The notes under the pieces are model-generated. The model was not told where the DNA came from. It saw only the letters and a list, made by a program, of their open reading frames with translations, and made no database searches. A stretch of 63,959 bases of DNA, the filler included, from Thermodesulfobacteriota bacterium (GTDB taxonomy: Bacteria > DASVDK01), in the NCBI GenBank assembly GCA_036381125.1. It is 5 parts of 5 records of this genome, joined end to end, with 100 filler letters (N's around TTAATTAATTAA, not from the genome) between each part and the next. Parts side by side here need not be neighbours in the genome. Positions count along the whole stretch, not along the records: positions 38,052 to 55,165 come from DASVDK010000029.1; 4 more parts are not named here. One strand, given 5' to 3'. Below are positions 24,060-49,750 of the stretch, one piece after another. The position numbers and the translations under genes were made by a program. Within the stretch, counting starts at the first letter, position 1. Each line of letters starts with the position of its first letter.

Positions 24060-27059
<3,000 letters not shown>

Positions 27060-45506: not shown

Positions 45507-46739
45507 ATGGCGCCACGCGAGGCTCCTGCGCTCCGGGTCGCCGAGGCCCAGGAGACCGTCCTCAACGCCGTCCGGCCCATCGGGACCGAGACGATCGACC
45601 TCGTCTCCGCGCTCTGGCGCGTGCTCGCCGAGGACGTCGTCGCGATCCGCTCGATCCCCCCTGCCGACAACTCGGCCATGGACGGCTATGCGGTCCGCAT
45701 CGCGGACGTCGCCGCGGCGACGCCCGAGCGCCCCGTGATCCTGCCGGTGTCGGAGGTGGTCCCGGCCGGCAAGCGGGCGCGCGCGCCGCTCGAGCCGGGG
45801 CATGCCGTCAAGATCATGACCGGCGCCCCCATGCCGGAGGGGGCCGACACGGTGGTACGGGTCGAGCACACCGACGGCGGCACCGAGCGGGTGACGATCG
45901 AGCGCGCCCCCGAGCCCGGCGAGAACGTCCGCCGGGCCGGGGAGGACATCGAGGCCGGCGACGTGGTGCTTGCCGCCGGGACGCTCCTGCGGCCCGCGGA
46001 GCTCGGCCTGCTCGCCTCGGTGAACCGGCCGCGCGTGCTCGTGACCGTCCGCCCCCGCGTCGCGATCCTCGCGACCGGCGACGAGGTGGCCGACCTCGGC
46101 CACCCCGATGCGGCGCTCGAGGACCGCGTCCTCGACGCCAACTCCTACTCGCTCGCCGGGCAGGTGCTCGAGGCGGGCGGGGTGCCGCTCCTCCTCGGCG
46201 TGGCGCGGGACGACCGCCGCGTCATCGGCGAGCGGATCGAGGCGGGCCTGCGAGCCGACGTGCTCGTGACGTCCGGCGGCGTCTCCGTCGGCGACTACGA
46301 CTACGTCAGGGAGGTGCTCGACCGGCTCGGGCTCGAGCGGCTCTTCTGGAAGGTGATGATCCGGCCGGGCGGGCCGCTCGCCTTCGGACTGCTCGGCGGC
46401 CGCCCGGTCTTCTGCCTCCCGGGCAATCCGGTCGCCTCCATGGTGACCGCGGAGCTCTTCCTGCGGCCGGCCCTGCGCAAGATGCTCGGCCACCCGAACG
46501 TGGCGCGCGAGACGGTCGTCGCCACCCTCACCGAGCCGATCTCCGCCCGGAAGGGCTACCGGACCTTCGTGCGCGCCGTGCTGCGGCGCGAGCGCGGCGA
46601 GCGGATCGTCTCGTCGACCGGTCCCCAGGGCTCGGGCATCCTCCGCTCCATGAGCCGCGCCAACGCCCTGATCGTCGTCCCGGAGGACGTCGAGCGCTAC
46701 GAGGCGGGGGCGCGCGTGGAGGTGATGCGGCTCGAATGA
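45507..46739 (+). CDS. moeA: Molybdopterin molybdotransferase MoeA
   Basis: NSAMDGYA, IMTGAP, TGDE, SGGVSVGDYD, LPGNPV, QGSG. Confidence 0.95.
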   Translation: MAPREAPALRVAEAQETVLNAVRPIGTETIDLVSALWRVLAEDVVAIRSIPPADNSAMDGYAVRIADVAAATPERPVILPVSEVVPAGKRARAPLEPGHAVKIMTGAPMPEGADTVVRVEHTDGGTERVTIERAPEPGENVRRAGEDIEAGDVVLAAGTLLRPAELGLLASVNRPRVLVTVRPRVAILATGDEVADLGHPDAALEDRVLDANSYSLAGQVLEAGGVPLLLGVARDDRRVIGERIEAGLRADVLVTSGGVSVGDYDYVREVLDRLGLERLFWKVMIRPGGPLAFGLLGGRPVFCLPGNPVASMVTAELFLRPALRKMLGHPNVARETVVATLTEPISARKGYRTFVRAVLRRERGERIVSSTGPQGSGILRSMSRANALIVVPEDVERYEAGARVEVMRLE

Positions 46740-47164
46740 TCCGGATCCGGGAGATCGACCACCTGGTGCTGCGCGTCCGGGACCTCGACCGGATGCTCGC
46801 CTTCTACCGCGACATCCTCGGCTGCACCGTCGAGCGGCGGCAGGACGAGATCGGGCTCGTCCAGCTTCGCGCCGGCCGCTCGCTCATCGACCTGGTCCCG
46901 GTGGACGGCGTGCTCGGGCGGAGGGGTGGGGCGCCCCCGGGGCGCGAGGGCCGCAACCTCGATCACCTCTGTCTCAAGGTCGAGCCGTTCGACGCCGAGG
47001 CGATCCGGACGTACCTTGCCGCGCGCGGCGTCGCGGCGGGGGAGGTCGCGTCCCGGTACGGCGCCGAGGGCGAAGGCCCGTCGATCTACGTCGCCGACCC
47101 CGAGGGCAACACGGTCGAGCTGAAGGGGCCGCCCTGGCCGGCCGGGGCGACTCCGTCGGACTAG
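46736..47164 (+). CDS. VOC/glyoxalase family protein
   Basis: IDHLVLRV, NLDHLCL, YGAEG, DPEGNTVELK. Confidence 0.9.
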   Translation: MIRIREIDHLVLRVRDLDRMLAFYRDILGCTVERRQDEIGLVQLRAGRSLIDLVPVDGVLGRRGGAPPGREGRNLDHLCLKVEPFDAEAIRTYLAARGVAAGEVASRYGAEGEGPSIYVADPEGNTVELKGPPWPAGATPSD

Positions 47165-47301
47165 CTCGAGCACTCCGCCAGGACCCGGCAGCCCCCCGGG
47201 GCGGTCCCGGTCCGCCGTCCTCCTCTCCGCTTGACATCTCGGTCGATCTCGTCGATAAGCGCCGTCAAACGTGGCCGTTGGCCCAGGCGCGAGGAACCGG
47301 T

Positions 47302-47808
47302 ATGAGAATGGCGGCTCTGGCTCTGATCGTCGCGGCGGCGGTGTCGCTTCCGCCGAGCCTCCACGCGGCCGAACCGCTCACGGCCGCGAAGGGTGAGGAC
47401 ATCCGCAGGCTGCTGCAGGCCACGGGTGCGCTGAGCGTCGCGCAGTTGATGTCAGAGGCCGTCGTGAGCCAGATGTCGGCCGCCCTGAAGCGGGCCCGGC
47501 CGGATCTCCCGGCCCATGTGTTCGACGTCCTCGCCGAGACCGTGAACGAGGTCATCGCGGAGGAGATGGTCGCCAGGGGCGGCTTCGTCGACGCGATGAT
47601 CCTGCTGTACCACCGGCATTTCACGCACGAGGAGATCCGGGGGCTGGTCGCCTTCTACGAGACGCCCCTCGGCCGGAAGGCGGGCTCGCTCGCCCCCATC
47701 ATGAGCCAGGAGGGCCTTCGGATCGGCCAGCAATGGGGCGAGAGCCTCGGTCCGAAGATCGCGGAGCGGGTCAAGGCGCGGCTCAAGCAGGAAGGCATCG
47801 AGCTCTAG
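47302..47808 (+). CDS. DUF2059 domain secreted protein
   Basis: Signal peptide; LYHRHFTHEEIRGLVAFYETPLGRK; TTGACA at 47231 upstream. Confidence 0.85.
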   Translation: MRMAALALIVAAAVSLPPSLHAAEPLTAAKGEDIRRLLQATGALSVAQLMSEAVVSQMSAALKRARPDLPAHVFDVLAETVNEVIAEEMVARGGFVDAMILLYHRHFTHEEIRGLVAFYETPLGRKAGSLAPIMSQEGLRIGQQWGESLGPKIAERVKARLKQEGIEL

Positions 47809-47848
47809 GGCCAATGCCTGCGCCTGGGGTCGGCATCTGTCTTGGGTG

Positions 47849-48142
47849 TCAAGGCCGAGAGCGGACCGGCTGCCAGGGGCGGCCGGTCTTGACCATGGCA
47901 TTGAGGATGATGACGAACGTGCGCACGCAGGCGGTCAGGGCGACCTTCGTGCGCTTCCCCGCCGCCCGCAGGCGCTGGTAGAGGGCCACGCGGTGGCGGC
48001 GCAGCTGGGCGACGAGGTCGGCCAGGCCGGCCTCGGTGTAGGGGACCCGCCAGGGGCGACCGCCCCCCGGGTGCACGTCGATGTCGAGATGCGCCCGGGC
48101 GATGTCGATCCCGGCGACGACGGCCGCAGCGGCGTTGGACAT
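47849..48142 (-). pseudogene. IS110 recombinase with in-frame internal deletion (97 aa)
   Basis: N-terminal VAGIDIARAHLDI joined to C-terminal YQRLRAAGKRTKVALTACVRTFVIILNAMVKTGRPW. Confidence 0.88.
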
Positions 48143-48177
48143 GGATGATGAGGCCTCCGAAGGGGGTGCCGAGGCCT

Positions 48178-48322
48178 CTCCCCGGCCCCGCCTTGCGGGA
48201 TGCGACCTCGGCGGGTCGCGCATCTGTGCGGGCTCGGCGGGAGGCCCACGCCCGGCGATCCTGGCTGACCCACGGGCTCACGGCCCCAAGGTCTGACGGT
48301 CTACCGGGCTCGGCTCGTTGAC
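48178..48322 (-). ncRNA. Putative IS110 bridge RNA
   Basis: Target loop: GCCCGG/CCGGGC stem, guides GTCAGACCT (48297-48289) and GGGTCAG (48271-48265) around a GGGC/GCCC hairpin. Donor loop: guides ACAGATGC (48227-48220) and GCAAG (48196-48192) around a GCGACC/GGTCGC hairpin. Confidence 0.8.
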
Positions 48323-48338
48323 GCCCCCAAGATACAAG

Positions 48339-48382
48339 GTCTTTCCGTTTTCCAATCTGGAAAATGGATAGACCTGACCCCA
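48339..48382. repeat. REP-like palindrome, interrupted by IS110 (rest of left arm at 47825-47833)
   Basis: Reconstructed empty site TGGGGTCAGGTCT-TTCCGTTTTCCA-ATC-TGGAAAATGGAT-AGACCTGACCCCA. Confidence 0.82.
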
Positions 48383-48399
48383 TGGAACGGTCTCGCGCC

Positions 48400-48961
48400 T
48401 CCGCCGCCTCGCCGCCAGCCGACCCGCAGCAGCCACGTGCGAGCGCCGGCGACGACGCCACGCGCCGCCGGCGCGGCCGACGAGCACGGGTCCATGCCAC
48501 GGAAGTCCGGCCGGTGCTTCCTCACGTTCTCGAGCACGTAGACGAGCGCGTGGTGTACTTCGCGGGGTGTCGCGAGGTCGCGGCGATGGTAGCGGTCCCC
48601 CCAGACCCTGCCCCGTCGCCTCGACGAGCAGGTGGACGTGATTGCTCTGGACGGAGAAGTGGCAGATGCGGAAGGCGCGCCCGCGCTGCGCGAGGCGAAT
48701 CGCCTCGCGCAGGGCACCAAAGGCGCGCATGCCACGAAGGCTGGGGAGCCCGGGACGCGCCCGAAGCGTGATGTGCGAGGGGTGCCGGGCGTCGTGATAG
48801 GGCCGGGTTCGGTGCGCGACGTTCGGGCGTTGGCCCTGGCGCTTGCGCCCGGCGCCCGGACGCCGGCCGCCCCAGGTGATGGGGAGCGACAAGGCGAGTT
48901 GCCGCCGGTCGACACGGCGTGGCCGGCGGCGACTCGCCGGCAGGGTGGCGAGTTGCCGCAT
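48400..48961 (-). pseudogene. REP-associated tyrosine transposase (RAYT-like Y1 HUH), deleted and frameshifted
   Basis: WGGRRPGAGRK, HITLR, FSVQSNHVHLLVEA (HUH); second frame GRVWGDRYH...LVYVLEN (catalytic Tyr region); intervening helix missing. Confidence 0.8.
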
Positions 48962-49291
48962 GAACGACCTTCTCGCGAAGCGGGATCACGTAAACGCGTG
49001 GGAAAGCCGACCGAAGACAGGAGGGGAGAGCCGGGCAGGGCGCGTCGCTTGATTGAGCACTATTCTATCGTAAGTCGATAGGGCAGGCAAGAGGTGATCA
49101 GGCGGGTCCGGTCCGGACGCATCGGTAACAGGTCAGAGCGAGAGAGCCAGGCCACGCAGGACCGGGTCGTCCGGAGACATGGGTGCCGCTCGGGGGGCAT
49201 GGACGTGAACGCCGTGCGCTGGAGGGAGATATCGCCGCCGAGGGATGACCAGGAGACCGGCTTTAGGTTGGTCGCGTGGCCTCGTCGGCGC

Positions 49292-49365
49292 GGGGTCAGG
49301 TCTCGACCCTGGCGAAGGTGGAAACCTGACCCCAACCGGTTGGAAAACGTCGAGGCCTGACCCCG
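49292..49365. repeat. REP-like palindrome plus an extra arm
   Basis: GGGGTCAGGTCTCGACC-N8-GGTGGAAACCTGACCCC, then GTCGAGGCCTGACCCCG. Confidence 0.78.
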
Positions 49366-49374
49366 TTGGTGCGC

Positions 49375-49490
49375 TCGTCGCCGATGACGGAGCCGCCGTT
49401 ACAGGGCGGCTGGTCGAACTCGTGGAGCGGCTACGCATCGGCGGTCGCCAGGTCCATGACGCGAACGTCGTGGCGACCATGCTGGCGCAT
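49375..49490 (+). pseudogene. PIN-domain (VapC-like) toxin C-terminal remnant
   Basis: LVELVERLRIGGRQVHDANVVATMLAH. Confidence 0.6.
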
Positions 49491-49750
49491 CCGCGCCAAC
49501 GCCCTGATCGTCGTCCCGGAGGACGTCGAGCGCTACGAGGCGGGGGCGCGCGTGGAGGTGATGCGGCTCGAATGATCCGGATCCGGGAGATCGACCACCT
49601 GGTGCCGCTCGCTCATCGACCTGGTCCCGGTGGACGGCGCGCTCGGGCGGAGGAGTGAGGCGCCGCCGGGGCGCGAGGGCCGCAACCTCGATCACCTCTG
49701 TCTCGAGGTCGAGCCGTTCGACGCCGAGGCGATCCGGACGTACCTCGCCG
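49491..49750 (+). repeat. Diverged partial duplicate of moeA 3' end and VOC 5' part (46655-47021) with a 107-nt deletion
   Basis: 49491-49605 = 46655-46769; 49606-49750 matches 46877-47021 with about 6 substitutions. Confidence 0.92.

Follow-up and report, generated by a model that had tools for sequence, protein, structure and literature searches.

IS621 and ISCro4 are the closest described systems to the locus reported here, a 503-bp element of the insertion sequence (IS) family IS110 on the minus strand of a DNA stretch from a Thermodesulfobacteriota bacterium (GenBank assembly GCA_036381125.1). The stretch, called the window below, is 63,959 nt (64 kb) long and joins parts of five records; the element and its surroundings come from DASVDK010000029.1. 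With IS621 and ISCro4, which belong to the IS110 subgroup, the locus shares a CT core, an RNA in the left end, upstream of the coding sequence, with two internal loops, a predicted sigma-70-type promoter across the junction of right end and left end, and a target resembling sequences of the repetitive extragenic palindromic (REP) type. In the account of IS621 given in PMC11208160, it is the bottom strand that the left guides of the bridge RNA pair with, so that their letters are those of the top strand; the right guides have the top strand as their partner, and either pairing takes in the core. Five residues of its recombinase, D11, E60, D102, D105 and S241, are each reported as essential in PMC11208158. 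We read the window element as an internally deleted, catalytically dead copy of such a system, and very probably as a fixed, single-copy relic.

Other IS110 objects without a working recombinase have been described. MITEPpu9, a satellite of ISPpu9 resembling a miniature inverted-repeat transposable element (MITE), is presented in PMC12288879 as non-autonomous, with IS110-family ends, REP sites and a transposase proposed to act in trans. As described there, it has eight copies in KT2440, carries the small RNA Ssr9 and has no internal deletion of a transposase gene, whereas only one copy of the window element has been seen, and it bears the guide RNA itself. For ISPpu10, a split-donor cassette of left end, cargo and right end (LE-cargo-RE) also places both ends around no working recombinase and targets a REP stem-loop, according to the preprint that presents it (bioRxiv 10.64898/2026.03.19.712850); it was built in the laboratory and receives its helper recombinase and bridge RNA from a plasmid, whereas the arrangement in the window is natural. 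IS110 deletion derivatives and truncated-recombinase loci, the same class of object as ours, have been catalogued in a second preprint, where they are given as inactive in the assay and filtered as remnants (bioRxiv 10.64898/2026.08.14.744561). A literature search for non-autonomous or MITE IS110 elements with a bridge RNA, with supplementary lists outside its scope, returned only the ISPpu9 work and one review. The window element is a deletion derivative of a known kind with IS621 architecture, well preserved but ordinary.

Recombinase remnant, element ends and deletion

The element encodes a 97-aa open reading frame (ORF) in which, by alignment, residues ~1-52 of a 317-aa recombinase are joined in frame to residues ~274-317. 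An initial annotation, made from the sequence, had described this ORF as a fusion of the first and last parts of an IS110 recombinase, and both alignment and tblastn agree. The homologue search among longer proteins gave 203 matches at E <=0.001 from 2354 candidates, and PF01548 and PF02371 are present in every homologue among the 120 of the 203 matches that were listed. The best match, P0001 (317 aa), is 88% identical across the N-terminal half of the query, and is homologous over its whole length, at E about 1e-41, to the solved transposases of IS621 (8wt6_A, E 1.4e-41) and ISCro4 (9t56_A, E 5.1e-42). When P0001 was compared with the window by tblastn, two pieces only were returned, 48121-47981 (residues 7-53, 91% identity) and 47986-47858 (residues 273-315, 77% identity), with nothing else below E 0.8; a cognate recombinase or other recombinase homologue was not found by this search in the 64-kb window.

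Lost with residues ~53-273 are the catalytic serine and all but one of the four DEDD residues. The single catalytic residue kept is the first aspartate, in GIDIA, and with one of five essential residues left the 97-aa protein cannot be a recombinase. Its score against the NCBIfam model transpos_IS110 is 32.1 bits (cut-off 140), and Pfam assigns it no family at E 0.01 and returns only noise at E 10 (DUF6907, E 0.11). Unlike IS621 and ISCro4, the element thus has a gutted recombinase, with 97 of ~317 aa, in place of a complete enzyme with the DEDD RuvC-like domain PF01548 and the Tnp domain PF02371 with its catalytic serine.

The two ends are those of the family. We retrieved 80 full-length relatives, 53-66% identical to P0001, and both element ends fit their consensus, CT followed by TGTATCTT on the left and AAGACAGATG on the right. 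Read along the minus strand, the arm of a REP-like hairpin ending in AGAC is followed by the CT core, TGTATCTT (48336-48329), a 196-nt leader and the ATG at 48142. The 3' stretch reads TTGACA, CCCAAGACAGATG (to 47834), CC and GACCCC, with ACAGATG (47840-47834) directly before the CC. The left ends of relatives likewise start with CT and TGTATCTT, and in an alignment of 60 leaders T2, T3, T5, A6 and T7 are invariant; in the left core the T is invariant and the C at least 90% conserved. Their right ends read TTGAC(A/T), five variable bases, AGACAGTTG and then CT, with the family consensus AAGACAGnTG, then CT (80 relatives). These ends are family-specific, with a repeated 2-nt core and no terminal inverted repeats, and the window departs from them by one base: its right core is CC, where 55 of 55 tabulated relatives carry CT. 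Direct re-reading confirmed this CC, as well as all minus-strand coordinates of the initial annotation, and homologous elements have identical boundaries. The CC is read in the window, and no contig of the other sequencing runs described below reaches 47832-47833. Full-length relatives measure 1135-1263 bp (median 1164), so an element of 503 bp with the same two ends is missing about 660 bp. GC content is ~0.69-0.73 across element and flanks, with no contrast between them.

In five relatives (L001, L012, L002, L060, L070), duplicated left-end starts or a second partial copy stand beside the element; among the examples are a pair of CTTGTATCTT starts separated by a few tens of bases and, in L001, the matching right target ~20 nt past the right end. 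Nested or tandem insertions are suggested by this.

The two ends also carry the halves of a putative promoter. When they are joined through one core copy, TTGACA, a 17-nt spacer and TATCTT follow one another, as had been claimed, and a sigma-70-type promoter would be rebuilt across the circle junction. In 38 of 55 relatives a -35 half, TTGACA (24) or TTGACT (14), stands equally far from the right end. For the integrated state, a scan of 47600-48700 for sigma-70-like promoters returned 0 sites.

The deletion itself is seen in more than one data set. Contigs of four other public runs (X2-X5), all of low depth, were aligned to 47300-48900. One of them, X3 record 9 from a different study (252 nt, identical to the window), covers 47841-48092, across the deletion junction with >100 nt on each side, and two others (X3 record 10 and X4 record 17) contain the left junction together with the same flank. 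The locus was thus seen in two other metagenomes, and it is near-identical in samples of at least three studies. Contigs from X2, X4 and X5 match the window only from 47981/47982 on, or only up to 47987, and then run on into what, translated by hand (VVLEATGGLE and VAARHNPVIR), is the part of the gene that the window lacks, so full-length relatives exist; over pieces of ~72 nt these are ~92-96% identical. The two tblastn segments overlap by 6 nt at 47981-47986, which fits the 7-nt repeat GGCCCTC. The simplest origin of the deletion is a slip or microhomology-mediated event between two 7-nt direct repeats.

Bridge RNA, guide sequences and interrupted target

The leader matches a family model of the bridge RNA from end to end. 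Covariance model R1 was built from the leaders of 55 distinct relatives, with the window left out, and has 135 positions and 26 pairs. It aligns to the window at 75.8 bits (E 4.9e-15) over 135/135 positions, between TATCTT and the ATG. The RNA therefore lies in the left end, between the junction promoter halves' left part and the recombinase start, and in the printed alignment 23 of the 26 modelled pairs are standard in the window. RNAalifold on the 55 leaders gave two stem-loops with large internal loops, one built on an outer stem of 13 bp and an inner stem of 4 bp, the second on stems of 5 bp and 4 bp; compensatory changes occur in 19 of the 29 predicted pairs. All four guide segments fall in loops of this covariation-supported family structure (Table 1). 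By analogy with the biochemistry of IS621, the window leader would function as a bridge RNA. Its family differs from IS621 and ISCro4 in the segment between promoter and target loop, which is variable in length and without a conserved 5' stem-loop, and is known here from sequence alone. A second R1 match, at 24594-24696 (11.5 bits, E 0.34), was taken as chance. Folded as a single sequence, the window leader does no better than shuffles (z -0.84; 37/200 shuffles fold at least as well), a comparison that is uninformative in DNA so rich in GC.

Table 1. Positions of the element, its parts and the interrupted target in the window.
Feature	Position	Strand	Remarks
Element	47834..48336	-	Left end, leader with bridge RNA, 97-aa remnant ORF, right end
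Left core CT	48337..48338	-	Sequence read directly
Right core CC (CT expected)	47832..47833	-	Sequence read directly
-10 half, TATCTT	48329..48334	-	In left end; same position in 38/55 relatives
-35 half, TTGACA	47847..47852	-	Overlaps ORF stop codon TGA
Bridge RNA model match	48182..48315	-	Covariance model R1, full model positions 1-135
Left target guide TCAGACCT	48289..48296	-	5' side of target-binding loop; last 6 bases AGACCT = 48342-48337
Right target guide GGGTCAG	48265..48271	-	3' side of target-binding loop; reverse complement of CT + GACCC
Left donor guide ACAGATGC	48220..48227	-	Identical to right end + first core base, 47840-47833
Right donor guide region CAUCCCGCAAG	48192..48202	-	Contains GCAAG (48196-48192), pairs with left-end CTTGT, one G-T wobble
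97-aa remnant ORF	47849..48142	-	In-frame N-terminus/C-terminus recombinase fusion, by alignment and tblastn
Deletion junction GGCCCTC	47981..47987	-	7 nt that border, on either side, the 660 bp present in full-length relatives and lost here
Left part of interrupted target, REP-like hairpin	48339..48381	-	Sequence read directly
Right part of interrupted hairpin, GACCCC = right target	47826..47831	-	Sequence read and rejoined fold

The guides of the target loop match both flanks, core included, on opposite strands. In relatives, the 7 nt after the GT of the inner stem are the reverse complement of CT plus the first five flank bases, and in the window the right target guide matches its flank GACCC (47831-47827) at 5/5. 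This guide of 7 nt including the core sets the family apart from IS621, for which PMC11208160 gives 4, with longer guides in some orthologues. On the left, the initial annotation had aligned GTCAGACCT (48297-48289) to the flank at 7/9 positions. That count stands, as does GGGTCAG on the right, but the leading G of GTCAGACCT is the invariant stem-closing G of the family and lies outside the guide; the true match is the 6 contiguous bases AGACCT, or a run of 5 without the second core base. Left guides in the family usually match the first core base only, which is a further difference from IS621 and ISCro4.

Across the family, guides and flanks vary together. The comparison used 50 relatives with distinct target loops (52/55 usable, 2 duplicates). 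Right-target matches were 5/5 in 34 of them, 4/5 in 12 and 3/5 in 4, with a mean of 4.6 against 1.56 for all non-self pairings, and the left-target identity run on the 5' side of the loop had a mean of 5.52 against 2.34. Neither observed mean was reached in any of 10,000 permutations of guides and flanks. Set against the 50 foreign flanks, the window's right guide never matched 5/5, and its left guide gave a run of 4 in 2/50. Covariation of guides with flanking sites, whose failure would have spoken against a bridge RNA, is in this way present.

The guides of the donor loop match the element's own right and left ends. The first 7 bases of the left donor guide and the last 7 of the right end are the same in 53/55 relatives, and this holds for rare variants too: ACAGTCG (5), ACGGTTG (4), ACAGGTG (2) and ACAGCTG (1) in the right end are mirrored in the guide. 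The window's own variant, ACAGATG, is likewise present in both places. In the right donor region, AT and CAAG are invariant or nearly so in the 55 relatives, and GCAAG opposite CTTGT with a G-T wobble is the norm in most of them, in agreement with the donor loop as first annotated. For the 8-mer ACAGATGC the window has 3 occurrences where 0.93 are expected, a count that 9/100 shuffles equal or exceed. Short guide matches alone are weak; their significance comes from family covariation and the R1 match. Taken with the strand logic described in PMC11208160, these data support the proposed IS621-type layout, with a CT core, left and right target guides and left and right donor guides in two internal loops, and a predicted circle-junction promoter. 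The other runs show strain-level differences: X3 and X4 carry the family-consensus base at 48228, just before the left donor guide, X2 differs from the window at 48190, and the left donor guide is unchanged in X3 record 10.

The site of insertion is a REP-like hairpin. With the flanks rejoined in silico, it folds at -40.9 kcal/mol with CT and at -36.2 kcal/mol with CC. Its other arm bears an uninterrupted AGACCTGACCC (48370-48380, plus strand), which recurs exactly at 49293-49303 (minus strand) and with one mismatch each at 49322 and 49353. Matches to this motif total 5 against 1.37 expected, and no shuffle reaches 5. The uninterrupted copies of the target motif all carry a CT core. Given the symmetry of the hairpin and the CT of all other copies, a later change from T to C is the simplest reading of the CC at the right junction. 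A heteroduplex origin of the CT/CC pair, by insertion into a CC-core target, was set aside on the same two grounds. Site-specific insertion, often into REP-like palindromes, is characteristic of the family and is seen for the window element too, and REP targeting is described for IS621 (PMC11208160), ISPpu9 (PMC12288879) and ISPpu10 (bioRxiv 10.64898/2026.03.19.712850) in the accounts cited.

Relic or mobile miniature

The history that we propose starts with a full-length element of ~1.16 kb and a REP-like hairpin that lay between a DUF2059 gene and a broken gene of the REP-associated tyrosine transposase (RAYT) type. The bridge RNA would have directed the element to the 3' arm of this hairpin (AGAC-CT-GACCCC). 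The in-frame loss of 660 bp between the GGCCCTC direct repeats, and with it of residues ~53-273, would have come next. Left over are both recombination ends, the two halves of the putative promoter and a bridge RNA gene whose four guides match the element's own ends and site. Such a remnant cannot move alone, and its degenerate right core, CC, fits a fixed relic. The order of these events and the present immobility are what we infer from the homology, boundaries, RNA structure, guide matches, deletion and shared locus set out here.

Copy number agrees with this history. There is one significant R1 match in the 64-kb window, and the X2-X5 contigs show only the same left flank wherever a flank is seen, with no second context. 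Among 22 proteins of near length (53-170 aa) none has the same fusion of N- and C-terminal parts, the largest query cover being 58%. A metagenome scan with the 97-aa protein found at least nine loci, each with the C-terminal part only (query residues 55-97 at most). The genomes of five relatives gave 31 R1 matches, of which 30 loci were retrieved; the fusion occurs in 0/30, with a full-length gene in 24, a partial or shifted one in 5 and a contig end in 1. The short form was not found at any second site in the window and the listed samples, a weak negative at that scope. Neither a circle junction nor an empty site was seen among the X2-X5 contigs, whose low depth would let rare forms escape. 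The searches proposed with the initial annotation therefore had a mixed outcome: full-length relatives were found, but no empty site was, and the look for circle-junction reads came back negative in low-depth contigs that cannot show rare circles.

One of the five genomes stands out in itself. Dehalococcoidia genome G005 (that of L028; loci L090, L095 and L097-L119) has 26 R1 matches, which fall into three or more sequence classes (132, 124 and 110 bits); a full-length recombinase gene follows almost every one of them. This points to a large expansion of the IS family there.

Several observations weigh against a simple relic. With its ORF still unbroken and its RNA stems preserved (23/26 pairs), the element may be of recent origin, or may be retained by selection or still be in use. 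Full-length relatives ~92-96% identical occur in the same communities (X2, X4, X5), so a helper may exist. The copy count covers the 64-kb window, and more miniature copies or a full-length partner may lie elsewhere in the genome. Among the matches listed, the metagenome scan, whose coverage is incomplete, has no locus covering both halves of the fusion and no close full-length partner or second miniature copy. As for the RNA, the left target guide forms 5 bp with the right one in the single-sequence fold of the window, because the target holds GACC twice, so that their single-strandedness in the window copy follows from the family consensus. An Rfam scan of 47000-49500 at E up to 1 returned only an irrelevant hit, H19_2 (E 0.79), the bridge-RNA coverage of Rfam 15 being uncertain. 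Finally, it is partly circular that the right ends in the guide table were placed by means of the left donor guide of the same element; for most loci a scan with an independent pattern recovered identical right ends and variants.

The best of the alternatives is an active, MITE-like element, in which the 503-bp form would transpose into REP-like sites with its own bridge RNA and the recombinase of a relative. The cis parts are complete and mutually consistent (ends, split promoter, four guides), full-length relatives co-occur in other communities, and further intact target sites lie nearby. There are precedents as well, since an LE-cargo-RE cassette of ISPpu10 was moved in trans in the work presented in bioRxiv 10.64898/2026.03.19.712850 and MITEPpu9 is described in PMC12288879 as a MITE-like IS110 satellite. 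We consider this unlikely, however, with a single copy seen and always the same flank, no protein of the same fusion among the 22 near-length matches and none among the 30 bridge-RNA loci of the relatives' genomes. The right core is CC, whereas matched CT cores are strongly preferred in IS621 (as given in PMC11208160), and truncated-recombinase elements were inactive in the assay of one preprint, by its own account (bioRxiv 10.64898/2026.08.14.744561). By analogy with these systems, and given a cognate recombinase in trans, the remnant would carry the cis parts for mobilisation, and in that respect the natural minimal cassette of the initial annotation is possible in principle. What tells against it is the combination of a single copy, no second context, no same fusion, a degenerate right core, no recombinase in the 64-kb window, no circle or empty site, and a deletion that looks like repeat slippage. 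Nothing shows that mobilisation in trans has happened, and the term "mobile miniature element" is not supported. A bolder form of the idea, and a long shot, is that of a self-guiding "bridge-RNA MITE", which would make its guide RNA once circularised, borrow the enzyme of a 92-96% identical relative and colonise REP-like hairpins. If true, it would be the smallest natural unit of bridge recombination, and would show guide and enzyme separately inherited in the wild.

A retained or domesticated remnant is a distinctly poorer explanation. Here the bridge RNA or the 97-aa protein would be kept for acting on related IS110 elements: the RNA could serve as a decoy or extra guide on a relative's recombinase, and the protein, with its RuvC N-terminus and last helix, could poison tetramer assembly. 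The in-frame, open ORF, the intact RNA structure and the near-identical locus in samples of at least three studies would all suit such a role. Yet an in-frame deletion has a one-in-three chance, near-identity across samples shows recency or one lineage rather than selection, no second example of the fusion is seen among the 22 near-length matches of the protein collection, and the integrated state has 0 sigma-70-like promoters, all of which makes the proposal very unlikely. Scarcely credible is an assembly artefact, with the deletion as a collapse or chimera in a metagenome bin assembled across a repeated IS, for although the source is of the metagenome type and IS copies often break assemblies, independent contigs from other runs cross both the deletion junction (X3 record 9, from another study, without a difference) and the left junction (X3 record 10, X4 record 17). 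The fixed, deleted copy is therefore the reading that we keep.

Neighbourhood and significance

The neighbourhood of the target holds traces of a REP system. A gene at 48278-48961 (minus strand) has two overlapping frames that weakly match the REP-associated tyrosine transposase model NF047646, over profile positions 12-66 in one frame and 89-134 in the other, at 16-17 bits against a cut-off of 80 (E 0.005 and 0.008), and it looks frameshifted or broken. This RAYT-like gene is flanked on both sides by palindromic repeats of the GGGGTCAGG type (48339-48381 and 49290-49365), a REPtron-like arrangement. Judging by these repeats, the target is a predicted REP-like repeat beside a broken RAYT-like gene. 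On the other side lies a DUF2059 gene (47278-47808, plus strand; Pfam E 1.6e-16), whose stop codon is 18 nt from the end of the interrupted hairpin, and before the insertion the hairpin may have been the terminator of this gene. Further out, a direct repeat (46655-47021 and 49491-49750; 96-98% identity) contains the 3' end of a moeA-like gene and the start of the next gene. Its second copy, ~2.8 kb downstream, is short of ~107 bp, and the stretch between the two copies holds the REP cluster and the RAYT-like gene as well as the IS110 remnant and the DUF2059 gene.

Evidence of movement would make the element a natural minimal cassette of donor and guide, and so of interest for the engineering of bridge recombinases. 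As it stands, the locus is a clean natural example of what an IS110 element keeps when its enzyme gene is lost: the whole guide RNA, both ends and the split promoter. With it comes a GC-rich and uncharacterised branch of IS621-like elements from soil and sludge, whose target is a REP-like hairpin and whose right target guide is 7 nt long. The analysis of 55 relatives independently reproduces the published covariation of guides and flanks in a new family, and yields a working covariance model for it.

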